NCBI GenBank assembly: GCA_044892505.1
Contig: CM097882.1
Coordinates: 253,952,001 to 254,016,000 of the forward strand
Length of the DNA stretch: 64,000 nt
Origin: Schmidtea nova
Taxonomy: Eukaryota
Direction: 5' to 3'
Numbering within the stretch: position 1 is the first letter of the stretch; each line of letters begins with the position of its first letter. The translations under genes were made by a program, and so were the position numbers. The notes below the pieces were generated by a model, which was not told the DNA's origin, did no database searches, and saw nothing but the letters and a program-made list of their open reading frames with translations. Positions 1 to 54,402 of this stretch are shown piece by piece.

Positions 1-1046
1 TACAGAAATCGACACTTACGTAGCAGTCATACCAGCATTAAGCGCACCTTGCATTATTGGAACAGATCTGATGCCAGCCTTATTTAAAGAAATCGTAATC
101 GATCTTGGAACAATGAGATTAAAAGATCGCACCGGACAAATATGCGCAATAGAAGCAAAAGTAACCAGTTCAAAGAAAATAACAATACCTGCAAGAAAGG
201 AAAAAATATGTTACGTAAAAATAGATCCTACAATCCAAGGTGATATGATTTTCGAACCAAGTAAAAGATTCGAGAAAAGAAAAGCATTGCCAATGGCAAG
301 AGGACTCGTTAACATAAATGATAATGGAGAAATTCCTATAAACGTAGTAAACTTCGACGAAGAGGATAAAATAATCTACGAAAACGAAAGATTAGGTAAA
401 CTAACCCCAATGATAGATATCGAAACACCAATAGAAGGGGAAGACAAAGATAAAGAACCAACCTGGAATATCGATAGTGAATTATTGAATGAAGATCAAA
501 AGAAGCAGTTAGAAAAACTTCTGATAGAATACAAGGACATATTTGCAGCATCCGATTTAGATCTAGGAACATGTGATGTCACACTACATACAATACCATT
601 AACAGATGAAACACCAATTGAATTAAGGCCTTACAAATTAGCAGAAGCACAAAAAGCAGTAGCAGAAGCAGAAGTGAAGAAAATGTTGGATGCAGAAGTA
701 ATCGAACCAAGTTGTTCACCCTGGCAATTCCCAGTGGTAATGGTAAAGAAGAAAGATGGAACACAGAGATTTTGCATTGATTATCGAAGATTGAATACAG
801 TGACAAAACGAGATACTTACCCATTACCGGACATCAATTAAATACTATTAACATTACAAGGAGCAGCATATTTTACGTCGTTAGATCTAAAAAGTGGATA
901 TTGGCAAATAAAAATGAAGGAAGAAGATAAAGAGAAAACTGCCTTTACCATCGGTAGAGACTTATATCAATTCCGAAAGATGCCATTTGGGTTAACGAAC
1001 GCACCCGCATCATTCCAAAGATGCATGAATTTCGTCACCCATGGAA
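1..1046 (+). pseudogene. Truncated Ty3/Gypsy pol fragment (end of protease, spacer, N-terminal RT), a relative of the giant element at 4549-31394
   Basis: ORF 71..841 aligns nearly residue-for-residue with the giant polyprotein (e.g. [56 protein letters not shown]). An in-frame TAA at 839-841 replaces GAA(E). Homology continues (MPFGLTNAPASFQRCMNFVTHGIKQC) and stops near 1046, before the YIDD motif. Confidence 0.92.
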
Positions 1047-1147
1047 TAAAACAGTGTATTTTAAATAAACAACTAGAACGAGTTGTTTTTGAAATAAATA
1101 TTATTATTCTTGATGTCTGATATTAAGATAGTTACTTATATATATAT

Positions 1148-2323: not shown

Positions 2324-4060
2324 TTAGTTTTTTGCATGATGGTGGCCGCTCGTGTGCCATGTACACCATTCGATGCACGATTTGGCTTCGTTCTTGAACA
2401 GGTGGTGGTGGATACAGATTGGAATGACTGGGTTATGAGGATTGTGGAATTCGGAAGCGCAACCAATGCAGCATTTTTGTGCATGTTTTTTGAATCGGCT
2501 GTGAAAATGGCAAATTGGTGGTGCGTTGCTACTTGGTTGCACGTTTTGTGTGCGTGTTACAGGTGGATGATTGGGACGTTGTGCTTTCTGTAATGGAGGT
2601 ATATAGTTGGAATATTTTGCGACGTTGCGGGCGTAGTGGTTTTCGGGTGAATGTTTTGCGTTGACAATGGGAGGTGACGGTGGTGGTGTGTAATTATCAG
2701 CGCGCGGTTTATGAGGTTGAAGTGCGTAAATGCGATCAGCTATTTTAGCAAGATAGTGCGGGTCTTCAGAGTCTACCAATGCGATGGAGGTTTGTAGATG
2801 ATATGGAAGTGCGGAGAAGAATTGGTGTTTTAAGAGTTGAGTGTTTTTGGACAGATCTGGAATGGCGGTGTCGTTGGAGCGGGCAATCTGTGCTAGGAAC
2901 AGGCTTGGTTGTTGTCCTGCGTAATTTTGTGGTGCCAAAAGCTTTGTGAGAGCTTGGGTTTGTGATGAGGTGTATTTTGACACTATCAGGGATTTGAGAT
3001 CATTGTACGGGTTGTCTGCGTAAAGCGCGTTGGCTATTTTCGGTGAAAGCTCGGCTATCAGCTCAGAAGGTAGGCTGTCGAGTAGGTAATCGGCCCGTGA
3101 TTTCGGAAAGAAAGACGTGCGCGATTCGAAAATGCGGAACCACGACGAGGGTGTGCCGTCGGGATCGAAAAATAACAAAATTGGGCGTGAAGTGGATGAA
3201 TAAGACGGTTCTGTAGTGGGCCGGATGCCTCCTAAAACGCGGCAATGAATTTCTATGATATCATTAGGTGGAATGTCGGTGAGTGATGAAACTGGGAAAC
3301 CATTGTACGTCATGTAAAAATCATTCCTATTAATCAGATGAGTGGTGGCGACATCAGTGCTCAAATCCGTGAAAATGGGGATTTGGTGTGTTTTGTGGTT
3401 GAAGCGCGTTAGGACATATGTTGGATAAGAGGCGAAAGAATCGTTGTTGTACATGGTGGATTGAGTGGTATTATTAATATAGACTTTAATGGGAGAGTAG
3501 AAAAATTGTACACCATAAAATTTTATAATTAAAATAGATATTATATTTAATATTATGCAATTTAAGAGGAATGCGTATAATAAATAATTAATTAATAGTA
3601 TAAATTTAAAATATGACTCGCCGTGTGGATGTTGAAGATTGATTACTGAAGATTGATCATTGAAATATTTGTTTCTTTTGTTCTTGCTATTAAATGGCCG
3701 ATTATTGTAGAAGTTATGCCGATTGTGCTCGTTCGGTTTATTGAATTCCAGGTAGAAAGAACGCCGGTTATTTGGATTCACCTTGTTGGGCATCAGATTC
3801 ATCATTGGCCACGATTTGTGACAACTTGGATCATTGAATTCATTCATTTGAGGTCTTTCTTGTCGGAAGTTCCCCTTTGGATTTGCAAATGGAATGTGAG
3901 AATTGGGAAAATTTTGGTAGCCACTTCTCGCAGGTGGCATTTGGCTTTGCATATTCAACTGAGCCTGCATGAATTGTAAAGAGCTATCTTCGACGGAATT
4001 TTCTCTAAACCGATTGTTTATTGGAATTATTTGATTCATTTGTTGTGGTAATTGGTTCAC
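2324..4060 (-). CDS. gag: Gag-like protein (578 aa) with low-complexity N-terminus, ubiquitin-like domain ending RVLGG, Gypsy Gag core and two Cys/His knuckles
   Basis: PDGTPSSWFRIFE...YLLDSLPSELIAEL...NPYNDLKSLIV resembles the Gypsy Gag N-terminal (DUF7041-like) region. Knuckles CHFHSRFKKHAQKC and CIHHHLFKNEAKSC. The start codon is uncertain. Confidence 0.75.
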   Translation of the reverse strand: MNQLPQQMNQIIPINNRFRENSVEDSSLQFMQAQLNMQSQMPPARSGYQNFPNSHIPFANPKGNFRQERPQMNEFNDPSCHKSWPMMNLMPNKVNPNNRRSFYLEFNKPNEHNRHNFYNNRPFNSKNKRNKYFNDQSSVINLQHPHGESYFKFILLINYLLYAFLLNCIILNIISILIIKFYGVQFFYSPIKVYINNTTQSTMYNNDSFASYPTYVLTRFNHKTHQIPIFTDLSTDVATTHLINRNDFYMTYNGFPVSSLTDIPPNDIIEIHCRVLGGIRPTTEPSYSSTSRPILLFFDPDGTPSSWFRIFESRTSFFPKSRADYLLDSLPSELIAELSPKIANALYADNPYNDLKSLIVSKYTSSQTQALTKLLAPQNYAGQQPSLFLAQIARSNDTAIPDLSKNTQLLKHQFFSALPYHLQTSIALVDSEDPHYLAKIADRIYALQPHKPRADNYTPPPSPPIVNAKHSPENHYARNVAKYSNYIPPLQKAQRPNHPPVTRTQNVQPSSNAPPICHFHSRFKKHAQKCCIGCASEFHNPHNPVIPICIHHHLFKNEAKSCIEWCTWHTSGHHHAKN

Positions 4061-4433: not shown

Positions 4434-4548
4434 CAGGGCCGTGCCTGGGTATATGGCCGCCTGCGTGCTAGTATGCATGGCCGCCCTTTGAGATAACATC
4501 AAAATCAAAGAAAAAAATGAAATTTTCATTCTTAATGTTTGTTATTAT
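4434..4548 (-). mobile_element. hAT DNA transposon terminus (CAGGGCCG...), separated from its transposase remnant by the giant LTR insertion
   Basis: CAGGGCCGTGCC follows a (TA)n run, with subterminal GGCCGCC motifs. It is contiguous with 31399 onward once the LTR element and TSD are removed. Confidence 0.55.
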
Positions 4549-4935
4549 TGCTGGTGTGTTGGTTGGATTGACAACTGAGATCCTTATGATTTTATACGTT
4601 AGGGTGATCTCGCCAACATAAAAACATTTCCCCCGCTGACACCCATGATGTATCCCTAACTACTCATCATGTTGGTGCTGTGTCAACGTTGTGAAATGAC
4701 AAGGCAGGTGAGCAACCTTTCGGCTACTATTCCCTTGTTTATTCACGGGTCCACCACTACCGATAGAAGGTGTCTGTGGCTTTCTTTCGGTCCCACTTAT
4801 GCTCTTTACTTTGCTCTAGGGTAATTTATATTTTTGATATCTGCAGCCAAAAAATGAATCCGGGTTTTTGTTACTTTTAATTCTCATACATGCGTCAAAC
4901 AAACAAAACAAATCAAATCATTCATTTATATACAT

Positions 4936-5535
4936 TTATTTGTAGTTCAACAATACAGAGGGTCGGATTACATTTAGTAGTTCTTGCTCGGATAGACCAC
5001 TGAGCAAGTCTACCTCGATTCCTACGCGATCTGCATATGCGCGTCTTTCCCTGCGCTTTTTCGCTCCTAAACGATTCCGTCTCTTTGTGCGTTGTGAGCC
5101 TGCGGGAATCGTATTTGTCACTGTAGTAGTCGTGGCTACGGTCGAGGCATTCTCTGTTTGGGTGCTCGTAGTCACCGCTATCGCGTCTATCCATCGATTA
5201 AAGGTGCTAGCTCTGATCACTGGGCGTAGTTGGTCGGTGATGAAGTCGCGAGTCGATACCTTCAAATAATTCGCCAACTCCAATTTCAGGGCTGCAATCT
5301 CTCTGGCATGGTCCTCAGCTACTCGTTCTGCCCTGTACCTAGCCTGCAGGATGGACTTAACCCGCTCTGGGTTAAACCAGGTAGTCTTAATCCGCTGATG
5401 CTCCTCATTCAGCTGCCTTAATCGATTTTCCAGGACTCGTGAGCGCGCCTTGTGTTCTCGCGCCTCTTGCTTGAAGTCTCTGCCCTCGGTTTCCGTCATG
5501 TCTGTAAATACATCATTAATGTTAGTATCTGTCAT
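4936..5535 (-). CDS. LTR-encoded 199-aa coiled-coil protein with Arg/Lys-rich motif (unknown function)
   Basis: Intact ATG ORF with CAG|ACACATG acceptor context, RTKRRNRLGAKKRRERR motif, and AATAAA overlapping the stop. Confidence 0.6.
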   Translation of the reverse strand: MTDTNINDVFTDMTETEGRDFKQEAREHKARSRVLENRLRQLNEEHQRIKTTWFNPERVKSILQARYRAERVAEDHAREIAALKLELANYLKVSTRDFITDQLRPVIRASTFNRWIDAIAVTTSTQTENASTVATTTTVTNTIPAGSQRTKRRNRLGAKKRRERRAYADRVGIEVDLLSGLSEQELLNVIRPSVLLNYK

Positions 5536-5681
5536 GTGTCTGATTTTTCGGTCATCCTATCGTCATTAAACAGCTCTACCTTATCCTTAGGTTGTTCTCA
5601 TGCACTCAAAACAAAACAAGACCGTTGCACACCGATACATATATTTCAATATCTAAGACAATCATTCTTTCTCGGTATCAA

Positions 5682-6317
5682 TCAATTGAATGTCCTCAAT
5701 TCCTGATCGGCAGGATGCTCGTCGCGGCGAATTCCATTCTCCCAATACATTTCTGGGGCTGGGGTCCAACTCAGCTTATCTTTGTAGATAAACACCTCCC
5801 AGAGGCGAAGCTCCTTGGGCTCGGGGTGTTGTTCCACGGAAACACTTCCTGGTGCATTGGAATAAGTGAAGACTTCCTCAGTGTAGCGACACCGAGGCCT
5901 GTCTAGCAGCAGGTATCCTAATTGGAAAAGAGCCCTTCCGGTCATCATTTCATTGCTCAATACCCAGCGGGGTCGTCTTTGCTCGTCGAGAAATTGGAAG
6001 AACCATCTATCGGTCCTTGGTTCGGCAGGATCCATGGTGGACATCCAATCGGGGTCTCCTTCCCATCGTAATTGTATCGTGAAGGCGCAAGCCGGAACAT
6101 CTGCGGCTGCACTCATATGGTGTCTTGTCCACCGCCGTAGATGTCGACGCGCAGTTTCGCTAATTCTGCGTGGGGCTTCCATTTCTCCCTCGATGGTAGG
6201 GATCCTCCTTGGCCGGACGACGGAACGGATGCGTCGTGGTTTCCGGACGACATAATCTTCCATTTTCATCTGTCGATAGGTGCTCGGACTTCTTTGATAT
6301 TCTTCGGTCTTTATCAT
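5682..6317 (-). CDS. LTR-encoded 211-aa protein with basic N-terminus (unknown function)
   Basis: Intact ATG ORF preceded by CTAAC branch, a pyrimidine tract and CAG|AAAAATG; RKPRRIRSVVRPRR motif. Confidence 0.6.
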   Translation of the reverse strand: MIKTEEYQRSPSTYRQMKMEDYVVRKPRRIRSVVRPRRIPTIEGEMEAPRRISETARRHLRRWTRHHMSAAADVPACAFTIQLRWEGDPDWMSTMDPAEPRTDRWFFQFLDEQRRPRWVLSNEMMTGRALFQLGYLLLDRPRCRYTEEVFTYSNAPGSVSVEQHPEPKELRLWEVFIYKDKLSWTPAPEMYWENGIRRDEHPADQELRTFN

Positions 6318-8035
6318 TTTTCTGAAGACAAGAAGATGTGATTGTGATGAATTTGTTAGGTGCGTGCAATTATTTATAATCGGCGACCTACTCGACTCAA
6401 GAGTAAAACTCTGTAGGTTGCCGTTGGTGTTTCAGTGTTAGATCGGTTCGATGTTCAAGATAGTAGGTAGGTTGTATGTTATCGTCATGTGGTTGAGTGT
6501 ATTCACTATGTCAAGTTGCTTAACTGATTTGGCCACGCAAAAATTCAGTGCAGTTTATGACAATCTGTATTCATTTATGATGATCACTTGATCATTTATT
6601 ATGTTAGAATATCATCATTTCATAGACCATTTTGGTTTATATCTACAGCAATCATACTCACTCGCATCTCAGGTGTTATCTCCATACCTCATTTTCAATT
6701 AACAATGGTCACATCATCCGGGGAACATGTTCGACCCCTTACTCAGGTTAATTGGGTACAGATTGTGCTTGTATTATATTTCGTGGGACTATCCTTTGTA
6801 CCCTTCGTGAGGCGTGTATATGTGTTGGGACATCCTGTGGATTCATGGTTTTACTCCGACGCTAGCACTGTCAGTCTCTGACTCACATGGCTCATGCGTT
6901 GTATATCTCTATCGTCGTCAGTGCTCAATTTATCATGATACTTACCCTCTGCACAAAGCTGTCGTTACTCTACTTGACTTCACGAACGCTGAACACTTCC
7001 TCGTCGATCAACCCGTCTTTTATGTAAACCCATGTACTCGATGTTGTCGTGACAGATGATACGCCCTTCAATTGCTTCTACCCATACTGAGGTTATGATG
7101 ACATGAGATATCCGATGTGCCCTTCCCCCTTCCGCTTGTTAAATATTTAGAACACTTATGGTCCCGCCGCATCAGCACCTCACAACCTAAAGATTGTGTT
7201 GCGCTGAGAGGCCCCAAGAATCCGTCAGGCTGTTAGGCCTCCGGAAAACCTTATGGATTTTAATATGGATAACAATTAAAATTATGAGGGTTTAAATCAA
7301 TAAGAATGCAACTCGAAATTACCTTTTATTCCAATTTACTGCTTCACAAGTTGTCTACAAGTTGCTACTGTTAATCACACTCAGTAAAAATGACACACTG
7401 TCAAACACTGATTTGACTTCAGTATTTATACTGAACCGGTGTTGTTGGTTAGCCAATCAGCATCGAGTATGTGTGTATGTTTGCTTCATTTTTTATGTTG
7501 TCGGCTTTTTGCTGCCTAACTTAACTCGCCGATTTGTTTGGTTAATCATGCGGTAAGTTTTTCTTAGTCATCAATTTATTTTATTTTATTTTTGTTTATA
7601 GGTCTTTGGTGACATCCGCCCACGCGCTGTCATATTCCAATTTTATCTGCTTCGCATGAGTGAGTTTTGACGATTTTTGTTGTTTGATTTATATTTTATT
7701 TCTTTTAGATGTTGCCGCCTATTTTGTTACGCTTTGGTGTTGGTAATTTATTTTGTTGTTATTCTGTATTTAATTTATTTTATTGATTGTATATTATTTT
7801 CAGATGCTGCTCGATTTGGCTAGCCCAACATCACTCGGGGTCCCCTAAAATTGCGTCCCGCAATTACATGCATATACCTACATCAACATACATAAAAAGT
7901 TCGTGACAGAACTTACATGCAAAACCACATAAGGTGGTAGCTTTCATACCCATTTATACAAAGTCACACATTGTCATTGTCATGTTTTTATTGTTTATAC
8001 ACAGTTCAATGTTTCTGGCTCATAGGGGTTGATTT

Positions 8036-8560
8036 TCAGGTCCTTTCACTGGTTGACTGCATTTCGTATCGGGCTTGGATTTGTCGTAGATGACTTCTCA
8101 TCCTTTGTTGGGTTTTTGCTTCTCTTTTAGCACGTCTACACATTATCGTTTGTTGTTGTTTGAGGCTTCTGATTCGATACAGGGTATACGTGATCACGAT
8201 GATCAAGATGATTGTTAATATCGTCATTGTGACTATTCCGACGATGATCCATCTGTTTCGGATTTCGGATTCGATTTGGGTTTGACCTTTGATTGGCTTT
8301 AGGTGATCTTGAAATGTTCTATGGATTTCTCGGATCTTCTCGATTTGATTGAATAGGGTTTGCAAGGGTTTGCGATGATCATGACTGATTCGCATTTTCC
8401 GGATTAATTGTTTCAAGTCTTCTCTGACTTCATTTAGTTGTTTTTCGATCTCTTGGGATATCTCGTTTGACAGGGTTCTTTGGATTTCGGTTGTCGAATA
8501 GTTCATGATTATTGCAGTTAACATAATCGTTAGGATTGATAGGATTTTGAGCCAGATCAT
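8036..8560 (-). CDS. Accessory 174-aa predicted membrane protein (signal/anchor, coiled-coil ectodomain, TM, basic tail)
   Basis: Hydrophobic N-terminus MIWLKILSILTIMLTAIIM, NYS sequon, heptad region, TM WIIVGIVTMTILTIILIIVITYTLY. Confidence 0.7.
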   Translation of the reverse strand: MIWLKILSILTIMLTAIIMNYSTTEIQRTLSNEISQEIEKQLNEVREDLKQLIRKMRISHDHRKPLQTLFNQIEKIREIHRTFQDHLKPIKGQTQIESEIRNRWIIVGIVTMTILTIILIIVITYTLYRIRSLKQQQTIMCRRAKREAKTQQRMRSHLRQIQARYEMQSTSERT

Positions 8561-8633
8561 TTCTGATTATTCTACTGATTAATACAGGTTACATTGATTT
8601 GTACATTTTTACACACGGATTTTTCGCCTCTTT

Positions 8634-9794
8634 TTACACATCCGTCTCCTCTGGTTCATGGAACCCTTCGTCTTGGAGTTCCATTGGTGATGGTGGTATA
8701 AACGGTAACCACACCACTCTACTTCTCCACATTGCAATTTCATCTTGATACGTTTGAGAGATTTGTATCTCTTCATCTAACAGATACTCCATGTAGTCTG
8801 ATTGTTCGCTCAGAGTTTCGATTTGTCTTTCCATTTCTTCCACTTTTCTCTTCAGGGCTTCTGTTTCTGTTGATTCGGTTTCTACTTCTATGGTTTCTTT
8901 CTCTGCTTTCAGGGTTATTATCTGCTGTTTCAGTTCTTCGTTTTCTTTCGTCAAATTCGTTATATTTTCCTCATACGCTCGGTTTGATTCCGCATGTCTT
9001 TCCTTCACAGCTTTCAGTTCCATTTTCTTTTGGGTCACCACCCCTTGGTAACCATTTACATCTCTTTCCAAGCTTTCTTTTTCCCTGTTCAACTTTTGTC
9101 TTTCCGCTTCCTCTTTTTGTCTAATGCCTCGCATTTCTCCATTTATCATCTGTATTTGCCATTGCGTTTTCTTTAGTTCCTTTGCTTGTTCTCGAATAAA
9201 TCGTTGCCGTTTTCGACTCCATTCTTTGTTTGTCTGTTCTTGTCGTTTTCTCTGTTCCAATTCCTCTTTCAATTCGTCTATCTCTTGATACAATTTCCAA
9301 TCTTCGCTGTATGCTGTCCTTCTGATTATCTCTTTGGCTTCTTTATACACCCGTTTCGACTCCATCTTCCAATGTCTCGCTTGAGCTTTGATAGCTAGTA
9401 GTTTTACCTCCATCTTTTCCTCTTGTTTCTCCCTTTCTTCTCTTCGCGTTTTCATCATATTTTTATAATGTTCTGCTTGTTTCCTCATCCACTGATAGAC
9501 CTCTTCTATCTTCTGTCGGCTTCGTGAATTCGTTCCTTTTAGCTTCTCTATTTGTGTTGTCAGTTGTACTATCTCTTTATTCACTTCCTCGAGTTCTAGT
9601 TGGTATAACTCCATTCGTCTCTCGCATTTTAGTTTCTCGTAGAAATTGTTTGTCATCACTTCGTGTAATTCCCTGGTTCTTTGTTCTACTTCCACTTTAC
9701 ATCTCCTTTCGATTTCTCTTTCTATTGCTTCTCGTTCGTTCGCCATCTCGTTTCTCGTTTCATCTTCGATTACATGTTCATTTGCGTTTTCCAT
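8634..9794 (-). CDS. Accessory 386-aa long coiled-coil protein ending EPEETDV
   Basis: E/K/R-rich heptads throughout, same purine-rich coding bias as the polyprotein, CAG|AATG start context. Confidence 0.75.
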   Translation of the reverse strand: MENANEHVIEDETRNEMANEREAIEREIERRCKVEVEQRTRELHEVMTNNFYEKLKCERRMELYQLELEEVNKEIVQLTTQIEKLKGTNSRSRQKIEEVYQWMRKQAEHYKNMMKTRREEREKQEEKMEVKLLAIKAQARHWKMESKRVYKEAKEIIRRTAYSEDWKLYQEIDELKEELEQRKRQEQTNKEWSRKRQRFIREQAKELKKTQWQIQMINGEMRGIRQKEEAERQKLNREKESLERDVNGYQGVVTQKKMELKAVKERHAESNRAYEENITNLTKENEELKQQIITLKAEKETIEVETESTETEALKRKVEEMERQIETLSEQSDYMEYLLDEEIQISQTYQDEIAMWRSRVVWLPFIPPSPMELQDEGFHEPEETDV

Positions 9795-9883
9795 TCTGTA
9801 ATTTACAAATTTACACTTGTTATATTATACGTTTATTGTTGCTGTCGATTTTTACACTTTATTTACAGGGTCGTTCATTCTGA

Positions 9884-11296
9884 CTACTCCAACCATCCTT
9901 TCGTTGACTTCGTGTTCATCACTGTTGTACTTGCTTTCTTTTCGATCTCCAACTCTACATATAAGTTGTCATCGTACAACATTTCCCACATTGTTTGGTG
10001 TGGTATGAATTTTGGTTCTCCAGTCGCTAATGAACATTCTGTGGTTGGTCTTTTGTAAGCTTCGTGCTTACCATCAATTTTGAATATTCTCACGATCGTT
10101 TCTTTCGAGTTTTTGACTCTCATTATAGCCTTTGTTTCTAGTGGCCATTCTAATATGTCGTCGTAACCACCTTTACACAACGCAAAGAATAATGACACAT
10201 GCGTTTCCTTTCCTGATCCATCTCCATTTGGATAAATTCTCATCCGGACTTTGTATCCATTTTTCCACAGATAGAATGGTGGACTTGTTACCGACACCTG
10301 ACTTCCTGCTTTTGCTGCTGCGAACTTTTCGTTGAAATTCTTAATTTTCCATACATATGGTGCGACCGGTAAACTCTCGATATCCTCCGCGTCTCGCACC
10401 CACATTTGGTGTCGTACATTTACTTCCTTTACTAATGTCTCTATGACTTTGATTTTCTCCATCATTTTCTCTCTGGTGAGCTCGAATTGTTCTCTCGTTT
10501 CCAGCAATAACTCCGTCATTATCCTCTGAGATTCGATTTCTTTTCCCAGCTTCTGTATGGTTTGCTCCATTTCTTTTAAATTTTCTGTTAGCATCTCTGC
10601 GTGTTGTACTGTCTCTGTTTCTAAATGCTCTTTCATTTCTTTGCTCGTTTTCTTTACTACACATCCTTGTTTGCTCCATACGCACTTTCTTGGTCTTGAT
10701 TCGCATTGTTCCCAATGTTCTTTCAACATCACCTCTTCTCTGGCTCCACAATTACTTGGACAAATTCCTCTGAATTTTCCGCACACTTTCTCTTCTGCTA
10801 CGTTGAGATGCTCTGTTTCGATTACTTCTCTCGTCTCTTTCTGGGCACAGTATTGACACTCTATTATCTCTGCTTTGCACTCATCCTTGTGATTTTTCGA
10901 CTGCTTGATGGTTATCGTCTGTTGACACTTTTCACATATCGCTTTCTTGTTTTCGCATTTTCCCAGATGTTGTCTTAACTCAATTATTGGTCCTTTCCAT
11001 TCACATGGTTGGTTTATACACTCGGTTTTTATCTTCCAGATCTCCTTTTGTATTGCTTTATCTGGTTTCGTCTCGTTGATTAGTAGTTTATCGCCACACT
11101 CTGGACACTTTCTTGTCTCACTTTCACTGATTATTTGCAATATACACTTGGTGCACATCCTGCATCCACATTCCGTTTGTCTCGGTTTTAACAGTAGATT
11201 TTTACACTTTACACACGTCACATTTACTCCCCATTGTCGATTCTCTCTTCTTAGAATCTCGATTGTTTGGTAGTCTGCTTCGTTTTCTGCTCTCAT
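9884..11296 (-). CDS. TRAF: TRAF-family protein (RING, TRAF zinc fingers, coiled coil, MATH), 470 aa, intronless
   Basis: RING CVKC...CGCRMCTKC...CPEC; zinc fingers such as CINQPCEWKG...HLGKC and CVWSKQGC...H; MATH YVWKIKNF...SPPFY...GYKVRMRIYPNGDGSGKETHVSLFF...DDILEWP. Confidence 0.93.
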   Translation of the reverse strand: MRAENEADYQTIEILRRENRQWGVNVTCVKCKNLLLKPRQTECGCRMCTKCILQIISESETRKCPECGDKLLINETKPDKAIQKEIWKIKTECINQPCEWKGPIIELRQHLGKCENKKAICEKCQQTITIKQSKNHKDECKAEIIECQYCAQKETREVIETEHLNVAEEKVCGKFRGICPSNCGAREEVMLKEHWEQCESRPRKCVWSKQGCVVKKTSKEMKEHLETETVQHAEMLTENLKEMEQTIQKLGKEIESQRIMTELLLETREQFELTREKMMEKIKVIETLVKEVNVRHQMWVRDAEDIESLPVAPYVWKIKNFNEKFAAAKAGSQVSVTSPPFYLWKNGYKVRMRIYPNGDGSGKETHVSLFFALCKGGYDDILEWPLETKAIMRVKNSKETIVRIFKIDGKHEAYKRPTTECSLATGEPKFIPHQTMWEMLYDDNLYVELEIEKKASTTVMNTKSTKGWLE

Positions 11297-11385
11297 TCTA
11301 CAACAATATTTACATCAATTTCCCCATATTTTTGATTTTTCTGGTTCTTTATTTACACGTATTTACACAATTTTCCGCTTATTCA

Positions 11386-11736
11386 CTATACATCCTCCGT
11401 TGAATCTGGCTCTGGATACGCGTCTATCTCATTTACAATCCAGCTCGTCCAACTATCCGGTATCTCCTCCTCTTCATGTCTCGTTAATCGATCAATTTCC
11501 TCTGCTTGCCAGTTGTTTACTTCATTTAATGTTCGGTTCTCGTTCTGTAATTCGTTTATCTGTAGTTGTTGAATCTCGATTTTGTTCATTGCTTCGAAAT
11601 TACAGTTATAACTCTCGGTTAATAATTGCGTTTTTGCCGTCAACTGGCTCTGTAATTCATTTACTGTTCTGGCTAGCAGGTCACATTGTACTTTCCATCT
11701 TGTCATCATCGACATCTCTGTGGTTCCTTGATTCAT
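11386..11736 (-). CDS. Accessory 116-aa coiled-coil protein ending EPDSTEDV
   Basis: ATG ORF between the polyprotein and TRAF, heptad pattern, TAG|AAAAACGATG context. Confidence 0.6.
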   Translation of the reverse strand: MNQGTTEMSMMTRWKVQCDLLARTVNELQSQLTAKTQLLTESYNCNFEAMNKIEIQQLQINELQNENRTLNEVNNWQAEEIDRLTRHEEEEIPDSWTSWIVNEIDAYPEPDSTEDV

Positions 11737-11858
11737 CGTTTTTCTAGATTATATACATCATTCTCTTTTTCTGTTTTTATGTTTTATAATATTTATACCC
11801 ATACGTATACGGTTATGCATTGGTTTTTACAATATTATTTACACTCATATTCCACCCT

Positions 11859-14800
11859 CTATACAACTATTACTGGTTTTCCTTCGTACAGTTCCTCGTC
11901 CTCGATCTGTACCCACATCTCCTCGTGTTTCGATCGTCTTTTCAGTTCCTCTCGTACTTCTTTTGGTAGTTTTATGTTGTAGTTCGTGACCTTTACGTCT
12001 GGCCATTTTACTGCTATGGTCTTATTTCTCATGCCATATCTCCAACATACTATCATGATCGTTATCAGTGGGATACACGCTATGAATACTCCCATGCTGA
12101 TTAAACCCATTATTGTTTTCCCAATGCTCCTTCTTGGAGTCTCACTTTGGTTTATCATCACGCCATATTGACCTTTCCATTCTGCTTCCCATTGTTCATA
12201 TTGTTGTTGTCTCTGTCTGACTTCTTCGATCACTTTCTCTGGTTCCCATCTTTCTTGTTGATTTTGTAGTATTTCCTCCGTCTCTGTTTGTTCTCTTTTC
12301 TGACTCAATTCTCGGAATTCTAACTTGCGGGTTCTCCCCTTTATCGTTATGTTCCTTGGCGTGTAATAGGTTTCGCACCTTTCTTGTGGATTTCCTTGTG
12401 CATCTACTTCTTCGATTGCACACACTTCGTATTCTGCGTTTGTTTTCAACCTCCTCATTTCTACCTCGATTGTTTCCCTTTTATCATTTGATGTCTTTTG
12501 ACAGTTTCGTGGAGACTTTCCCATACTGTTTGGCATTAATGTCCAACAGATTTCTAGGACCTTTTTATGGATCTTCCATATTATCAGAGTCGTTGATTCC
12601 GGTTCGTTTTTTGTTGACGTCCCTTCTGTTGTCTGTTGAGTTCCTTGACTGTTGGTTGTCGTGGTTCTTCTTGACTTTCTTTTCCTTTGTCGACTTCCTC
12701 CCATTTCGATCGTTCTTGTACCGTTAATTTGCTCTGGCGTCTTGTACAGTCTGCACTCCAGGCTTCTTTGTATTACTTCTCTTATTCTTCGGATTACGCA
12801 AATTTCATATGCTTGTCCGACTTCGAATCCATTTAGTTGAAACGGGATTCCTCGTTCTCTCGTCCTGCATTGCGGTAGTACGTGACTGGTCGATACTCCG
12901 ATGTATTTTCTCCAACACATCCCAATTGTTCTCCGACCAATGTTTTTTATCTCCACGGTTACTACTTCATTCGCAATCGTTTCTTGATCTTGTTTCTTTC
13001 TTTTTGGGAACTCAATTATCTCCTTTGCTTGGAACACTTTACACTCGCTTGTTCCTGGTCTGTTTCCGTTTGCTGCCTTTTCCATGAGACATAGTTCACA
13101 TTTTCTATCTGTATCTATTTCGGTTATTTCGATTTCTTCATTTGTCTCTGCTTCTCGACTTTCTCTTGTTTCGCTGATTCCAATTACCTCATTGTTTCGT
13201 CCCCAACATCTTCCGTTCGTTGTTCGTTGGTCTTGGATATTTACTAACGTCATTACGCTAATATCTATGTCCTCCATGATTCTCTTAATGAGGATTAATA
13301 TTAATGCTACACATATCAATTCCGGTTGGAATGTTAATTTTCCCGCTGAATTTTTGGTTATTCTTTCTTTCTCCGTTCGGTTTCCGATTCCTTCTTCTGC
13401 TTCAGATTGATTCTTCCCTTTCTCCGATTCCACTTCTGTTCTTCTCGTTGTCTCTTCGCTTCTTTTCCCAATCCATTTCTGTATCTTTAGCGCTTCTGTT
13501 GCTTTATATAATTGACATGCAGTTACTTGAGGTGCTTTTGGTTCTCCTCTCTGCTTTACTGCGCATATTATGTATGATTTTTCTTTCTCCAATCCTTTGA
13601 TTTGGATGACGTCTCGCTTCAAATCTGATAATATACACTTCAGCGTATCGTTTTTCTTCAGATTTTCTTTCCAGCATATTCTTTCGTATACTTCATTTCC
13701 TCTGATTATTTCCAGCGTGACGTATTGTTTCTTGGCTTCGCCCTGTCCGATGATTGTTATCAATATCGCAATACACAACATTTCTGGTCTCAAAAGTAGA
13801 CTTCCTGTTCGTTTTCCATAGTTCGCATGTTCGTCTTTTGTTCCACTGTTTTCTCGTTCCTCTGCTTCTCCTTTCTTGTCGTTTCTTGTTGGCTTTGGTT
13901 CTTCTTGTCTTTCTTTTTCATTATCCTCTGTTCTTTTGTTGTCATTGTCTTCGTTGTTCTTTTCGCTGTTACTTTTGTCGTCGTAATCTCCGTAACCACC
14001 CCCTGGTCCTTTCGAAATGTCGTCCTCGACATTAATTTCTTCAATCAATCTTTCATACGCTTGAACCGCGAGTGTGCTAGACTCGAATTCACGTATTTCC
14101 ATATCCTTGGATGGTTCTATGTTTTCTAGTCCACTTTGCTTGATCGTTTCTTTGGCATTTGCCCATTCATTCACATATTTTCTGAACAAATCTTTCCATC
14201 TTCCCGTTCGTTCCTGTTCTTTTGGGTTGTTCGTAAATTTCAAATCTCTTCTCTTCAAGAATTCTTCTACTATCTCTGGCTTTTTGTGTCTTAGTAACGC
14301 GCTTCTGATACACCAATTCTGATTCTGTTCCATATTGTCATTGATCTTGAATGCCGGTTCCTTGGTGATCGGATTCACCCATGTTAGTAATGCTCTTGTT
14401 TTCTCTATGTCGTGTATCATTACTGTCAGACTGAAATTCTTTACGTTATTCGCCAGGTATTCTATCTCCTCTTGTCTCTTGATGGACTTTATGAACTTGA
14501 TCATTTCAAAGTTGTTCCATTGTATTGCGATATCTATGATGGAATTATTCTTTCCATTTTTCCCTTCGATTTTTGCTCCTGCTTCGTATAATTCACTTAG
14601 CGCTTTAAAGTTCGTCTTCTTTCTTGCTGCGATTATCATGATTGTATCTCCGTTATCATCAACCGTATTCATGTCCGCTTCGCATTTGACCATTGCTTTC
14701 GTTATTTCTAGCACTTCGTTTTCTTTCTTTCGACGTAATGCCCAGTGTATCGGCAATCTCCCATCCTTTGATAATAGGAATGCCACTGGCATTTGATTCT

Positions 14801-17800
14801 TGATCGTTTCTATGTCACTCTCGTTATAATCTCCTTGTGCGTATCTGTGCACTTTCTCTGTAATTGCTCCTAGTATCTCCAACGAGTTTTTATTCTCCTT
14901 GAATTCTGATAGTCTTTCTTGCGTTTTTGCTACGATTGCGTCTAGTCTCTCTTGATTATCAGCTTTTGCATTGAACAACACTGCTTTGCTTCTTATTCGC
15001 GTTTGCATCTGTTTCATTCGTTGGTCTTGATACACTGCTTGTCTGAAGAATTGTGCATACTTCAATGCTTCCATCAGCTCTTTATATCGCTTGCTTATTT
15101 CTTTGTGCTGCTTTTGGATGTCATAGAAATGTTCAAAGCTCATATCCGGATTCCATTGCTTATCACACCATTTCCTGATTAATCCGAATAATTCTTTCTT
15201 TCTGTCTTCCAACTTGTATTCTCTTGGGTTCTCGCTGACCCGTAGCGTATCTCTCGCTATTAACACTGCAAGTGTTTTTGGATCGTATGTTACTTCTAAT
15301 AGATGTTTCAGTAACACATTTTCTCCCCTTATGAACACTTCATTACAATCTATGACCCACGAATCTCCTTCTGGTCGTTTCCACTTTAGCAATATTCTCC
15401 AGGTTTTACTGTTCTTTACCCCGATTGCTTGTTTCATGATTGATCCTCTGGTTAGTTCATCGATTTCCCACGTGGCATTTTCCGTAATATACTTCAGTAT
15501 TCGGTGATTCGCTCTGTCAATTGCATGATTCAAGAATGTTCGTCCTTCTTTATCTTTTGCCATCCAATTCGATCTGGTGTTTCCGAATAGCTTGATTATT
15601 TCATCGTTTCTTCCGTGAATCGTCATCATCATGAGTGGAGTGATTCCTTCCCAATTCACTTTGTCAATTTCTCCTCCACCTTCGAGTATCATTTCCACGA
15701 TCTCTTTCACTTTTTCGTTTCCACTGTGCTTGATTGCATTATGTAACGCGGTATTACCATCTTTGTCTTGTAGATTCAATGTTTGAGGGATTTCCTCTAG
15801 CAGCGTTCTTGTTATTGGATGCGCTGTTCTGTCTTTTGCATACTCCATTACATACTTTCGAACTTCTGACAGTATATTGAAATCGAGCCACCATTTCCAT
15901 TCTGGTATAATTTCTCTGGTCCTCTTTGCCAGTTCTTTGATGTCTATTGCTTCTCTTCGATTGTCTTCTAGACTTGTTTGCGGCTTTTGTTGTACTCGCA
16001 ACATACTGATTCTCGCCGTCTGTGATCTTGTCATTACCCGTTTCTCTGGTGATAGAGTTGCTGTCTTTGGTATTTTCCTGCATCGACATGCATTCACGTA
16101 TATTGGTCTTACCAATGGATTGTTCACCAATCGTACTCGCACATTATTTTCATTCACTGTCGTGATTTCGTATGGCCCTTTGCCTGGTCGTTGGAGTTTC
16201 TTGACCGTACCGGGTATTATCTCTGGTGTCTCAATTATCACCCAATCTCCAACTTTTAAATCATGTGCTTTCACATTCTTTTTCTGATCATGTAGATCTT
16301 TATAACTCTCTTGATAGAACTTGATGTTTAGTTCCGCCGTTTTCCAGATTTCTTGCATTCTTTCTTTGAACTTTGTAACGTAATCGTCAACCTCCATGTA
16401 CTGTGATAATGGTGGTTGGTATTCTAAATCGATCGGTAAGTTGCAATCTCTTCCGTACATCAGTTGGAATGGACTTAGCTTTGTTGCCGCATGTATTGAC
16501 ATTCTATATGCCATTAAACACAGGTTTATATATTCATCCCAGTCAGTCTGATGTTTACTGACGTAATTCGACAACATGCGTATTAATGTTCCATTGAATC
16601 TTTCTGTTTGACCGTTCGTTTGCGGATGGTATGGGGATGTTCGTAATTTCGCAATTCGGAAGTAATTCGTAACTTCGTCTAATATTTCACTCATGAAATT
16701 CGTTCCTTGATCCGTTAGGATTTTCTTTGGTGTTCCGTATCTGCAGCATATCTCTTCCACCAATATTCTTGCGACTGTTTTCGCCTTTTGATCCGGTATT
16801 GCGAACGCTTCTGGGAACTTTGTTAGATAGTCTGTGACTACTAATATGTATTGATTTCCCTTCAAACTTTCCGGCAATGGTCCAACTACATCCATTGCTA
16901 TCGTCGCCATAGGTTCTGCAGGTATTGGCATTGGTTTTAGCGGTGTTTTCCACTTCGTTCCGACGTTCTTTCTTGTCGCACAGGTTAAGCAGTTCTTTAT
17001 CCATTCTTTCACATCATCTTCCATGGTTGGCCAAAAATACTTTTGTCTCAATCTCCCGATTGTCTTTTTCGCTGACATATGTCCGCCTAATTTTCCGTCA
17101 TGATATTGAGTCATGATTTCCTTTCGTCTATTCGCAGGTAAGCACATTAATCTTCGTTCTCCATCTTGTATCAATAACCATCCTTTTTCCATCACGTATC
17201 TATGTTGGTATTTTTGCATATGTTCGCGCAACGTTTGGTTCTTGCCGAATATTTCCAGTTCCCTTTCTTTCAGATACTTGCTGATCAATCCCAACTCCTC
17301 GTCTTCGAGTTGATCTTTCCTTAATTCGCTGAAATCCAGATCCTCCGCTATTAATGCACATATTTTCAGGGCGTTTAGGTTCACCAATTCTGGAAATGTA
17401 AACCTTGACATGCAATCCGCGTTTGCATTTGCTTTTCCTGCTTTAAACTTTATGAATGGCGAGTATTCTTGCAACTGCATCGCCCAACGCATCAATCTAC
17501 TTGATGATTCTTTATGTTGACCTAACCATACTAGCGGTTGATGATCCGTCGTGATATATATTTCATGACCCCACAGTAGGTACTTGAAATGCTTGATTGC
17601 CAATATTATCGCATAGGCTTCTCTTTCCGTGACTGAGTAATTCTTTTCATGCTTTCTGAATGTTCGACTGTAATATCCGATTACTCTTTCCTTGCCTTCT
17701 TCGTCAAATTGGCCTAGTACTGCTCCTGCTGCGTATCCACTTGCATCTGTTGCCAACAAAAATGGCTTCTTAAAATCTGGATGGACTAATATTGGTGCTG

Positions 17801-20800
17801 TAATCAGCTTATCTCGTAATGTTTCAAATGCTGCTTGCTGCTCTTCTCCCCATACAAACGACACATCTTGTCTTACCAATTCTTGCATTGGCTTTGATAT
17901 TCCTGCATAGTCCTTGATAAACTTGCGATAATATCCACACAATCCCAAAAATTCTTGTATTTGAGTCACTGTCTTTGGTGGTGGACATTCTTTGACTTTT
18001 TCGATATTCCTTGGATCTGGTTCTTTTCCTTTTGCTGATACAATGTGACCTAAGAATGTCACTTTTTCTTTTGCCCAATCGCACTTTGACGGCTTCAATT
18101 TCAGCTTCCACTGCCTCAATTTCACGAACACATTTCTGATGTCTTGTAAGTGATCTTCAAATGTTGCGGAGTAGATCAATAGATCGTCGATATACACCAT
18201 GCATTGTTTTATGCCATGTGTTACGAAATTCATGCATCTCTGGAATGATGCTGGCGCGTTTGTTAACCCAAACGGCATTTTCTTGAATTGGTACAGATCT
18301 CGTCCGATTGTAAATGCTGTCTTTTCTTTATCCTCGTCTTTCATTTTGATCTGCCAATATCCGCTTTTTAAATCCAGTGACGTGAAATAAGCTGCTCCTT
18401 GTAACGTCAATAACATTTCATTTATGTCTGGCAGTGGGTACGTATCTCTTTTCGTAACTGCGTTCAATCGTCTGTAATCGATACAGAATCTCTGAGTTCC
18501 ATCCTTCTTTTTTACCATCACCACTGGGAATTGCCAGGGTGAGCAACTAGGTTCGATGACCTCTGCATCTAACATCTTTTGTACCTCTTCTTCTGCCACT
18601 GCTTTTTGAGCTTCTGCCAATTTGTATGGTCGTAATGCGATTGGCGTTTCGTCCGTCAACGGTATCGTGTGTAATGTTACGTCACATGTTCCTAAATCCA
18701 GATCTGATGCTGCGAATATATCTTTATATTCCATCAACAGTTTCTGTAACTGTTCTTTTTGTCGTTCGTCTAACAACACACTGTCGATTTTCCATGGTAA
18801 TTCGTCTTTGCTTTTCTCGTTCTTGTCTGGTATTTCGATTTCGGACATGGGTGTCAATTTACCCAATCTCTCATTCTCGTATATTATCTTGTCCTCTTCG
18901 TCGAAGTTTACCAGATTGATCGGTATTTCTCCTTCTTGGTTTATCGTGACCAATTCTCTTGCTATTGGTAATTCTTTCTTTGCTTCGAACTTCTTACTTG
19001 GTTCGAATATCATGTCTCCTTTGATTGTCGAATCGATCTTGACGTAACACATCATTTCATGTCTCGCTGGCACTACTATTTGTTCCGCACTTGCCACTTT
19101 AACTTTCATCCTGCAGATTTTCCCTGTCCTATCTTTTAACTTCATTGCTCCTAGATCGATTACGATTTCCTTAAACAGGTCTGGCATCAGGTCAGTTCCA
19201 ATAATACATGGTACACTCAGCGATGGTATTACAGCGATGTACGTGTTGATTTCTGCACCTCGATGCTTAATTTTTACAAACCATCTTCCGGCTACTTCTA
19301 CTGTCTCCTGACTGCACGCGATTACATGTACATTCGTCTTCTCAATTTCTCCTTGGTTCTTCTCTGGTATATAATTAATGTCGATCGCCGAAATATTCGC
19401 GCCTGTATCGATCATCGCTTCGATTTCTCTTCCATTTATTTCTACGGTTGTTGTTAAAATCGGTCCCATGTTTGTGGACATAACCGCTATCGTGTGCGTG
19501 TCTTCTAACGAATTTACACTTCCACCTCGTTTTACTTTGCATCCTTCTGGAATTATCGGGTATATACTTGTCATCGGCATCATCTGCATCATATTCGGTT
19601 TCGCTTTGTATATCGGTTCGTTATACATTGACTGGGGTGGAGCACTGTATCTCCAATTCTCAACTGCACTCTTTTCGTTATACTGTGGAATCTGGTTTAT
19701 ATTCGCTTGTCCTCCTTGATCGTCATCGTCATCATCATCATTGCTTGAATCATCTTGTGTTCGATATCCCCTTACTCTTTCCCATAGTCCTTTTCTTTCT
19801 TTCTTTAGTTGTCGCCTTGCTTGTTCATCTTGCATTATCTTTTTGAATTTCCTTCCGACATCTTCATTTGTTCCTCTCATTTTTGCAAGTATCTTTAACA
19901 ACCTCTTTATTCGATGTATGTCTTTTGAGTGTCCGTGTAACACCATCGTTTTCGCAAGGAATGGCAAAAATCCTACTACCATCTTCCAATTCACTTTCTT
20001 CTCTCTCTTGTAGATATCGAAACACGCTAACATTTGCGTTATTATCACCCTGACGATTTGTATTATCAATATAACACCCAGTATTCCAGCCATCATTTGT
20101 CCAAATATCAGGAATCTTCCCCACATTGCCTTCATCATATTTTCTGTGGCTTTCTTGAAATGTGCCGGTGACAACAACAGTTCGTAATTCGGTCCTTCTC
20201 GATAATTCGTTCCTCCCGTTATTGTTACGATATTTGACAGTAATGCTTCTCTTCTTGCCGGGAATAATATATTCTGCCTTGCCGCTTCTAAATCTTTTGG
20301 ACTATAGATTCCGTTGTTTGAGACATCTACGTCACTGAACTGTCTATCCTTTGACAACTGCATTAGCTCAAATTCTCTTGGTGCTAATACTTCAGTTCTT
20401 CCTGGGAACATGACCCATTTGCCATCTGGCTTCTGATAAAGCGGTCCGTACGCGTTACTACAGTTGAACGGATTTGGTTCAAAACTTGGTGGATTGATGA
20501 TTCTCGTCACCGGTTGAACGTATCGTACTTTTCCTTTATAATCGATTTCTAGTTCGTTTGTACATTGTCCAGGTTTCAACTGCGTTGTTGCTGCTAGCGA
20601 TGCGTGTGTCTTTTCGCAAATGTATACATACATTGCTTCTCCGACCACTCTTCCGAAATGTCCTTCTCTCAGTGGTAATAATGGCATCGCGCTATCTGGA
20701 TTCGTAATCGCTACGGCCAACTTTGTCTTTAATATTTCTCGATTCAATATACAATCGTTGTTTATCAGATCATAGTACACTTTTTGCAATGAGGCTTGTC

Positions 20801-23800
20801 CTCTATGGAATAAGAAATCCATTTTATTATTCACATACAAGTGTAGCTTGATATCCATTGTGTCGATCTTGGGTTTCGCATTCGGCACTTCTTGCTTTGA
20901 CACGTATATTCCTGGATAGTTTGTTTCGTATACTGTTGTACTGCACTTAAGGGTTGCTTTCCCTTTTATGAATCTCATGCCCACATCCTGATTTGTGGTT
21001 ATCAACACTGTTGGTGTGGTTCTCATCTCTATCCGTTTCTCTCTATGATCCGGTTTCAATTGTCTTTTATTCTCTAAAGCCTCTTTGAGATGTTTTGCTC
21101 TAGCTTTGTCATCATCATCTTCTTCTTGGAACGTTTTGCCTTGAATTTCGTCGAACTTTGCTCCTTGTAGCAGTTGTAATTGACATTCGTTCACCTTTGG
21201 TTTGTACACCAAAGTTGACATTCCCGTTTGACACATGCTTCTGTCAATTTTACACATGGATAACGTTTTCATTTCTCCTGTTGTTGGTTCGAAGAATGCT
21301 TCGTAGCTTTTCAGTTCGACTATATACGTATCCATTACCACTAAGTTGGTTGCGGGTACTCCGAATATTGGGTAGGTTTCTCCTTGACAATATCCTTCTC
21401 CTCCCGTAATCCGTCCTGCTACATAATATGTCTGCTGCAACATCATTCCTGGCTTTCCTTTTATCTTGATTTTATCTCTCGTTGTCACTTCTCCATGTTT
21501 AAACAATGCTTCGCAGTCTTCTCCTTGCAACACGATTGGTTCTCTTTCGGTTCCTGGCATGACAATTGCCGAATAATGTCCTCTCCCACAATAGAATGCG
21601 AATCTCGTCTTCTGTACCTTGCATTCATTCACCATTGTCTTTATTAGTTCTGCCTCTTGATACACGTGGTACCATTGTTCCTTTTTGATCTCTTTCAATT
21701 CTACTGGGGTTGCATCTTTGCATTGCTCCGTACCTCTCAATGAGTACTTTTCTCCTAACTTCATTTGATCACAATCAAATACTTCAAATGTTGTTGCACC
21801 CTCTGTGCTTAACAACCATACTAACATCATCATGATTATCGAGTTCAAATTCAACGTCGATCTTCCGTTTCCTTGCATTGTTTGTCTATTCTCCATTTCT
21901 CTCAATACTCCTTCGAGTTTCTTTCTCATCACGTTAGAACCTTCTTTTGTCTGATTCTCTTTTATGAACTTTTCCCATCCTCCTTTCCTGAGGATATATG
22001 GTTCAATTTCTTTCTCGATAATCATCGTCGTATTTTTAATATGTCTTCCCATCGGACTTGACTTCGGGCTTCCTCGGCTTAGCGTTAACAAATTGTATAT
22101 TGTATACGAGATTGCTACTAGATATTTACTGTCCGTCTCTGCTCCGTTAAGTAGCCTTTTTATTAACATAGTGGTTCCTTGCCAATCTAGATGATTCGAT
22201 TTTGTTTTTGCCTTTATCAATTCTGGCATAATCGGTGCTATCGCATTGTGTAGCATCCTTGCCTTTGTACTGGGTTCGTTTATCCGCCACAAATTCTTTA
22301 ATTCTGGATCAATTATCGCCAACACATCCATTATCGTTTTGGTGAGCCATTCTTCTCCTTGACAGACTTGATTCTCCTCTTTGCCTCTGATTTCTGCGAT
22401 TTTGTCTAATTTCTTTAAGCAAATCTCCCATTGCTCTTGTCTCCTTTCTTCCCTTGTTTTTGGGATTGCTGTTGTTGGATCTATCTTTGGTCTTCCTCTT
22501 GGTCGTTTTTCCATTCCAGTTCCGGTTTCTACAAATCTCGTTGCTCTTCCTGTTTCTTCCGTAACATCTCTTCCTTCGTTTGCTCGCTGTTCTAACCATC
22601 TTTCCATTTCTTGAGTAAACTGGGGTTGTTCTTGTTCGTCTTCCGAATCGTTCACCATTTCTATGACTACCTCTTGCTCCACTTCTTGATCGTCGATTTC
22701 TGCTGGTGACGTTATTGGCATCTCTATTATTCTGTCAAAAATATTCGCCGTTGGTTTTTGAGTCAACTTTGTTAGTTCTTCTATCGCCTCATCACTATCT
22801 GTTAGTATCTCATCGACGTCATACGCTTCTGGCGGTGTTCTCTCTCTCGTTTTGATTGGTGTTGTCCTTGCTTGTCCCGAACTTGTTCCTGGGGTCATTG
22901 TTGACTTCATCGGACTTGGTGTACTCATGCTTCCTTTCGCTTTCTTTTCCTCTTTGAACTTCAGTGGTTGACCCACTATTTGTGCCACTGTTAGCGTATT
23001 CATTAGATCCAATTGCACTGGTGTCAGCCAGATTTCCAAATTGTTATCCAACGATCGTCCTTGATGTTGCAGGTGGAATGGTAGTTCGTACATCAGTTTC
23101 TCTTTAACACTTTTCACTTTTTCCGTTAGCATCACCCAAAACTCTTCTTTTCTCTGATTCGGATACATTATCCTCAAATGTATTTTCTGTGGCGTTTCTT
23201 CCGCAAATTCTCGGTTTCTCCACTTTTTTATTACGTCGTCTAGTTGCTCTGGACACCACTTGTTAACTCTCTTGTATTCTGCTATCGCTTTAGCTACTTT
23301 TCTCAAGTTCGTTATGTCTTCTCCATTTGAGATTATGAAACCTGCTAAACCTTTTATTGTTTGTCTTTTTCCCCGAGTATTTCCTCTCAACAGCTCGATC
23401 AATTCACTCGTTTTCTGTTTCTCCAATTCTGCCCATATTACTGCAGTTTCTGGTCCGTCTAAGTCCGTTGGTAATAACCTCCTTGTTACCATACATATCC
23501 GTTTCGTATTCCGTTCATTTCCGTCTTCTCCTTCCGGATCTTCTTCATACACGCCTCTTTTCACTTTCCAACATTTCTCTTTGTTATCCCATTGCTTCTC
23601 TACTGGCGTCAATCGTCGTCTATTAAGATCCAATTCTCCCAATATTGTCTCCCATTCTGGCTTCATCTGCCAGTTCCGATAGATTTCTACTATCTGCCTC
23701 AGCTTACGCATAACGTCCTCTTGTCGTTTCTTTTTCCTTTCCTCATCCCTTGGTGTTGCTCTTTGCACATCATCCATTCTGATGACGTGTATTGTCTGAT

Positions 23801-50190: not shown

Positions 50191-50265
50191 AAATTCAAAC
50201 ATAAAAATTCACTTTTGTATTAGTGAATACCATAAATAGAAAAAGTCGTTTTATAATAAAAAATT

Positions 50266-54397: not shown

Positions 54398-54402
54398 AAT
54401 AT

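Follow-up and report, generated by a model that had tools for sequence, protein, structure and literature searches.

Complex retroviruses (HIV, HTLV and the foamy viruses) and the adenovirus major late unit share a layout in which a single promoter feeds a short common leader, the major donor is close to the 5′ end, and each of many acceptors sits just before a start codon; the donor of HTLV and the foamy viruses is inside the long terminal repeat (LTR), and the adenovirus unit has alternative 3′ ends. Among Ty3/gypsy elements, those of the Burro/GYPSM1 type are defined by a single polyprotein of about 4900–5100 amino acids (aa) that includes ankyrin repeats and places env, in frame, between gag and pol (PMC6431247; this and the other sources given by PMC number are cited in part). 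Errantiviruses of Platyhelminthes with a class III (gB-type) envelope have the order GAG-ENV-POL (PMC13524379), and the Ty3/gypsy element Cer1 of C. elegans makes a cis-spliced subgenomic RNA, with splicing skipped for the genomic RNA (PMC3315495). For Burro elements no spliced subgenomic RNA or LTR intron was found in the literature covered, which includes PMC6431247 and PMC13524379 (the main text of the latter has no occurrence of 'splic' or 'accessory') and stops short of the planarian spliced-leader SL3 paper and of the original Burro genome paper with its supplements, all possibly relevant.

The window studied here is a stretch of 64,000 nucleotides (nt) of Schmidtea nova (contig CM097882.1), and it contains an LTR element of 26.8 kb on the minus strand, from 31394 to 4549 in window coordinates, that hosts all six accessory open reading frames (ORFs A to F) for which the initial annotation had proposed splice acceptors. 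The acceptor feature is real and the element family is known; the shared-leader expression scheme proposed here is new, and one of its junctions is demonstrated from the genome. Like Burro/GYPSM1, the element has a polyprotein of about 5000 aa in which env stands between gag and pol and ankyrin repeats are present, a MATH/TRAF module, accessory ORFs and a size near 30 kb (PMC6431247); unlike there, TRAF forms an ORF of its own after the polyprotein. BIR, BCL2-like and AAA/midasin domains have no Pfam match at E 0.01; the Burro study found some of these only by profile-profile search. With the class III errantiviruses it shares gene order and fusion-protein class, and it adds seven accessory ORFs, two of them inside the LTR (PMC13524379). 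Cer1 has one spliced product, bearing the spliced leader (SL) SL1, whereas here there are about eight acceptors and no evidence of such a leader (PMC3315495). One promoter, a leader with a donor, and acceptors at start codons are held in common with the complex retroviruses and the adenovirus late unit; the donor lies in the LTR as in HTLV and the foamy viruses, and the predicted alternative 3′ ends would be like those of adenovirus. Unlike complex retroviruses this is a Ty3/gypsy element, and its LTR contains, past the promoter, an entire intron and two ORFs. Of their trait of one donor serving several acceptors, one pair is seen here in genomic fossils, and the other acceptors are conserved and predicted to be used.

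An intron within the LTR

The LTR features on which the principal result depends are as follows.

28113–31394, minus strand: 5′ LTR, 3282 nt, TG...CA ends, 100% identity with the 3′ LTR; the element is flanked on either side by a 4-nt target duplication
4549–7830, minus strand: 3′ LTR, also 3282 nt, carrying the promoter, leader exon, intron, ORF E and ORF F
7423–7430 (copy at 30994), minus strand: TATA box, putative in function, 399–404 nt into 21/21 LTRs
7323–7400 (copy 30887–30964), minus strand: leader exon, about 80 nt, start site predicted about 30 nt after the TATA box
7317–7322 (copy at 30886), minus strand: conserved donor AAG/GTAATT, in 19/20 other LTRs
6322–7322, minus strand: LTR intron, 1001 nt, precisely missing in LTRs L040/L057 and L058+L059
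5682–6317 (copy 29246–29881), minus strand: ORF E, 211 aa, acceptor AG at 6323–6322
6940–6945, minus strand: donor named in the initial annotation, not conserved

The AAG/GT donor lies 99–123 nt after the TATA box, and in the twentieth of the other LTRs the sequence is joined at this point to the ORF E acceptor. Two independent forms of this joining are present. L040/L057, the 3′ LTR of a 5′-truncated copy, is without exactly the stretch from the GT to the ORF E AG, and its intact counterpart, L063, retains an intron of 856 nt. L058 and L059 are both LTRs of one insertion, identical at 2092/2093 nt and flanked by their own 4-nt target duplication; they emerged from a junction search in which 40 of 202 candidates were scored. 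The two events carry different leader variants, with the GT–AG segment removed precisely in each, and are a lower bound because two other ORF E types of the same family lay outside the probe set. As a control, five other internal deletions (four distinct) were examined; all have microhomology at their ends and none is GT–AG. These genomic fossils show cis-splicing from the donor at 7322 to the ORF E acceptor.

The acceptor itself, a pyrimidine-rich run and a YAG 4–9 nt before the ATG, is present in 17/17 intron-bearing copies (CAG in six, TAG in eleven). The 20 LTRs of this test set are mutually 75–93% alike, which makes it a stronger test than the 95%-alike copies available for ORFs A to D. 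An ATG occurs in the leader exon only at TATA+32/33, beside the predicted cap, in 35 distinct sequences, which are related and so not independent.

The initial annotation had offered two alternatives. The first, a donor in the LTR spliced to accessory acceptors, is demonstrated by the ORF E fossils, but the donor in use is 7322/30886 and not the GG/GTAAGT it named, and for ORFs A to D the splicing is predicted rather than seen. The second, SL trans-splicing, of which no instance was seen, may still operate at A to D, F or G. That GG/GTAAGT does exist at 6945 and 30509; among the 20 other LTRs, however, GTAAGT occurs in none and GT in one, and the site is private to a small subgroup, with 12 exact context matches in genome G000 versus 388 LTR promoters. 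Three copies with a base other than G after its supposed exon are point variants, and we discard it as a used site.

The LTRs vary in other ways. L036 to L055 are mosaics whose ends are 85–92% alike and whose intron interiors are not alignable between types; ORF E occurs in three types, with 63–83% aa identity to that of the window, which have been combined with different leader variants by recombination. E and F are missing from the LTRs of L048, L049 and L145.

Architecture of the element and its other acceptors

The remaining features of the element are listed here in the order of transcription.

28089–28106, minus strand: primer-binding site, putatively tRNA-Pro-like
27236–27250, minus strand: candidate acceptor before gag, a T-rich tract and AAG/G, followed by 483 nt without an ATG
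11859–26753, minus strand: polyprotein, 4964 aa, Gag-Env-PR-RT-RH-IN-ankyrin by Pfam
11386–11736, minus strand: ORF A, 116 aa, acceptor AG at 11745–11744
9884–11296, minus strand: ORF B, 470 aa, TRAF-like (RING, zinc fingers, MATH), acceptor AG at 11299–11298
8634–9794, minus strand: ORF C, 386 aa, no Pfam family, acceptor AG at 9797–9796
8036–8560, minus strand: ORF D, 174 aa, hydrophobic ends, acceptor AG at 8564–8563, AATAAA at 7992
7831–7850, minus strand: polypurine-tract region, before the 3′ LTR
4936–5499, minus strand: ORF F, probably 187 aa from the ATG at 5499, acceptor AG at 5503–5502, AATAAA at 4940

The PR-RT-RH-IN order, the LTR ends, the target duplication, the primer-binding site and the polypurine tract are those of a Ty3/gypsy LTR retroelement, and by its architecture the element is of the Burro/GYPSM1 gag-env-pol type, with a polyprotein length within the range for that type, env between gag and pol, ankyrin repeats, and ORF B supplying the MATH/TRAF module. 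Pfam matches in the polyprotein are zf-CCHC (residues 275–291), the Monjiviricetes fusion domain (1908–2249), RVP (2435–2525) and RVT_1 (2747–2905), followed by RNase H, rve (3280–3377) and Ank. The fusion domain (PF24664, class III) sits in frame between zf-CCHC and the protease, and so precedes pol, whereas in Retroviridae a class I env follows pol. The last 680 aa of the polyprotein (13900–11859, minus strand) have no Pfam match and contain three hydrophobic segments and repeated cysteine-bearing units, resembling a membrane protein. At least 90 near-intact TRAF copies of the family are present in genome G000, and the 388 LTR promoters noted above are matches to its TATA-region promoter motif.

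ORFs A to D lie downstream of the polyprotein, and E and F lie within the LTR rather than in the internal cassette. All six AG motifs of the initial annotation are present, each as a YAG; from the ATGs at 11736, 11296, 9794, 8560, 6317 and 5535 they are separated by 7, 1, 1, 2, 4 and 4 nt, respectively. A correction applies to ORF F, in which the AG at 5539 and the ATG at 5535 are kept together in 0/18 other copies, and a CAG 2 nt before the second ATG, at 5499, is kept in 17/18; on this pattern the AG at 5502 and the ATG at 5499 are the most likely acceptor and start codon of ORF F. In 19/19 copies a YAG precedes ORF A (with a gap to the ATG of 6 or 7 nt) and ORF B, and the acceptors of ORFs C and D are likewise present in 19/19. 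Third codon positions of A to D are the least conserved in these copies (0.90–0.92) and the spacers are 0.95–0.99 identical, and therefore both the ORFs and the spacers are under constraint. A YAG 1–7 nt upstream occurs by chance at 121/591 ATGs of the element (20%), and a bare AG at 308/591; six of six would have a probability of about 7e-5 (the sixth power of 20%), with the caveat that the 1–7 nt window was picked after the fact.

Neither ORF E nor ORF F has a Pfam family, ORF F has no homologue among 276 candidates, and ORF E gave no viral fold matches at E 0.001; their predicted structures are of low confidence (pTM 0.53 for E and 0.30 for F). The ORF F protein is helical, with an arginine-rich stretch, conserved in both of the families compared here, that may resemble that of a Rev/Rex-like protein exporting unspliced RNA.

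Two further comparisons extend the acceptor pattern. The window copy is without about 2.6 kb between the primer-binding site and gag (at 27790–27760), which in 17/18 other loci holds ORF G, a protein of 152 aa with a C-terminal RING that is IAP-like by eye. In 17/17 copies that hold ORF G there is a CAG 3 nt before its start and an AATAAA just after its stop; because the acceptor rule predicted this CAG in a case not yet seen, ORF G supports the rule. In a second family, with about 66% DNA identity, a YAG lies, among the loci listed, before A in 8/8, B in 7/7 and C in 5/5, before E′ in 13/13 and F′ in 12/12 (some pairs being two LTRs of one element), and before G′ in 7/8, at 0–3 nt from the A, B, C, E′ and F′ starts. 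The gap varies between 6 and 7 nt at ORF A among the first set of copies, and between 2 and 3 nt at A and D in family 2, changing the frame from copy to copy, as expected if the leader is AUG-free.

Expression of gag-env-pol probably also depends on splicing, given that ORFs E, F and G lie upstream of it. The T-rich acceptor-like site before gag lies past the last upstream ATG in both families; the tract and AG are invariant in 18/18 copies, and a canonical TTTTAG is at the same place in seven family 2 loci. We rejected a GTAAGT at 27258, before gag, as a donor, as it is invariant in family 1 but missing in family 2, and only one point variant was seen. The sequence upstream of gag (27309–26753) has 556 nt without an ATG, and the gag frame is open for 121 codons upstream, and in family 2 for as many as 198. 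Both families have an in-frame stop and, after it, an ATT (27104) preceded by an A at −3, and variable sites are skewed towards third positions (15, 20, 31); a non-AUG extension of Gag is possible from this pattern.

The spacers before ORFs A to D are 73–122 nt long (11858–11744, 11385–11298, 9883–9796 and 8638–8563), and an AATAAA follows A, B, D, F and G. Of the 25 TGTAAA motifs in the element, 11 fall in these four spacers, which make up 1.4% of its length. CFIm sites were ruled out for these repeats since planarian poly(A) sites, as described in PMC5068929, are not enriched in UGUA. Six of them fit the PUF/Pumilio element UGUANAUA by eye (for the PUF consensus and the planarian stem-cell protein DjPum, see PMC5855632), and such PUF-like sites may act as 3′ untranslated region (UTR) control sites.

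Shared leader, operon or separate starts

We think it probable that all of the ORFs are expressed through a shared LTR leader with alternative acceptors and alternative 3′ ends. A single LTR promoter would start transcription about 30 nt after the TATA box and yield an AUG-free leader of about 80 nt ending at the donor 7322/30886; this leader, joined to the ORF E acceptor, would likewise be joined to those of F, G, gag-env-pol, A, B, C and D, each message would end at its own nearby poly(A) site, and a separate unspliced genomic RNA would retain the primer-binding site, the outcome being about eight single-gene mRNAs from one promoter. Beyond the donor, the acceptors and the one pair seen in use, we regard the start near TATA+30, the use of this donor by the other seven acceptors, cleavage after each ORF and the unspliced genomic RNA as likely. 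A related situation is known from cestodes, in which an acceptor normally used in trans-splicing is captured in cis by the donor of an LTR (PMC4558846).

Several observations weigh against so general a scheme. The introns before A to D would span 19–22 kb, skipping several acceptors and the poly(A) signal of the 5′ LTR, and spacers of 73–122 nt fit flatworm operons, in which downstream acceptors are the least cis-spliced (PMC12582326). The acceptors of A to D are without the T-rich tract found at the E and pre-gag acceptors; the 19 copies compared at A to D share 95% identity, so that their invariance is weak evidence by itself; and in family 2 the YAG of ORF D is found in only 3/5 loci, with RAG in two. 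The family 2 donor, judged by eye, is merely GTAA-like followed by a T-rich run at a similar distance from the TATA box. There is no AATAAA after the polyprotein, C or E; this is weak evidence, because only about 41% of planarian poly(A) sites have the canonical hexamer, most others having a variant (PMC5068929). Lastly, junction-probe searches brought up neither spliced nor leader-bearing fossils of A to D or F, and no spliced fossil of E′ or F′ of family 2. Probes for C and D had no matches, and those for A and F had two and three unrelated ones; ORF B had none and then one, which is a deletion from ORF A into B and not a clean GT–AG loss. The family 2 probes E1, E2 and F1 had none, and F2 had two (one acceptor point change, one unrelated). 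A donor-side probe gave 26 matches versus 23 in the control, the one real match being L040 again. Messages of A to D would be missing the primer-binding site and should seldom be copied; only the ORF E junction fossilises because an intron internal to the LTR lets a spliced genome keep the primer site and still be copied. Four sequencing runs of unrecorded kind from one study, over 4450–12600, behave as DNA and are evidence neither way, with their depth unused; they have no donor–acceptor joint among the 15 listed of 41, and an adaptor-like loose end is presumably a transposase adaptor.

Some of these points would be accommodated if E and F were cis-spliced and A to D, perhaps with G, formed an operon resolved wholly or partly by 3′-end formation and host SL trans-splicing, a mixed mode that we treat as a serious though minority prospect. 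Flatworm and nematode SL operons have short spacers and an acceptor just before each start codon, and in flatworms are defined by same-strand spacing of at most 300 nt and resolved mainly in trans (PMC12582326, PMC8629364); the spacing here is within 300 nt on one strand, with a 3′-end-like signal and then an acceptor before each ORF, and no introns of 19–22 kb would be needed. The spliced RNA of Cer1 exists both with SL1 and lacking it (PMC3315495), and an env-bearing element from a flatworm is sister to Cer1 (PMC13524379). In family 2 most gaps at A, B, E′ and G′ measure 0 or 3 nt, which would keep the ORF in frame with an AUG at the end of a leader. SL operons are also defined by having no upstream cis donor, however, and here one, which may reach A to D, is at work at 30886 for ORF E; where there is such a donor it tends to prevail (PMC4558846, citing Hastings 2005). 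The window gaps of 7, 1, 1, 2, 4 and 2 nt are all out of frame with the AUG at the end of the flatworm leader (PMC12582326), every ORF retains its own ATG, and no leader-bearing fossil of A to D came from probes that would accept one.

Two other explanations dispense with splicing at A to D, and we find both hard to credit. Each internal ORF could have its own small promoter, with the YAG as an initiator-like start and the repeated TGTAAATA, perhaps Forkhead-like, as a transcription-factor site; a TATA-like hexamer about 60 nt before ORF A and the concentration of TGTAAA in the four spacers would fit this, but the 5′ UTRs would measure only 3–9 nt, inspection by eye shows no TATA-like site for B or D, and the identical YAG–ATG layout at E is a proven acceptor. 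Alternatively, splicing could be confined to E (and F), with the AGs of A to D reflecting Kozak context or chance and these ORFs read polycistronically by reinitiation or internal entry. The background frequency of YAG near ATGs, the preference for A at −3, which favours AGA or AAA before the ATG, and the missing A to D fossils are compatible with this, whereas the retention of the YAG at A, B and C across two families of 66% identity despite changing gaps, and at ORF G as well, speaks for acceptors and for the shared-leader scheme.

We also put forward, as a rather improbable speculation, that Burro-type elements are complex viruses of the Ty3/gypsy lineage. The 80-nt leader would be placed on about eight ORFs, including gag-env-pol, so that mRNA and genome are distinct RNAs, with introns of more than 20 kb and a poly(A) site for each gene; the four-gene cassette would double as a host SL operon, and ORF F would be a Rev-like exporter of the unspliced genome.

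Neighbouring elements and significance

Related and unrelated elements are found around this one and elsewhere in the genome. A pol fragment of family 2 (3–1059, plus strand) has 78% identity to the main element, and an ORF at 2324–4039 (minus strand) with a weak DUF7041 match adjoins the 3′ flank. To the right is a Polinton/Maverick-like set (44576–56717, minus strand) encoding a protein-primed DNA polymerase B, an integrase, an A32-type ATPase, an adenovirus protein X-like protein and a chromo domain, and beyond it a ubiquitin-like ORF just before a BEL/Pao element (DUF1759, RT and Peptidase_A17; 59385–63851, plus strand). L151 and L152, two insertions on different contigs, share one microhomology deletion (window 18816–14172) that removes RT to integrase, and are a non-autonomous derivative that spread. 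At L143–L144, beside a run of N, thirteen units of 1295 nt precede a copy; each combines flanking sequence with the initial 425 nt of the LTR, which rules out a back-spliced circle, and the array is either a duplication or an assembly artefact.

In the literature found there is no account of how the many accessory genes of the largest LTR elements, which encode TRAF, RING and unknown proteins, are expressed. With the donor and acceptors now at corrected coordinates, exact junctions are defined for planarian RNA data, and cis- and trans-splicing can be compared on one transcript in an animal that possesses both. If true, the shared-leader programme with multiple acceptors would be a complex-retrovirus-style mode of expression that arose separately in a class III-envelope lineage of Ty3/gypsy elements.

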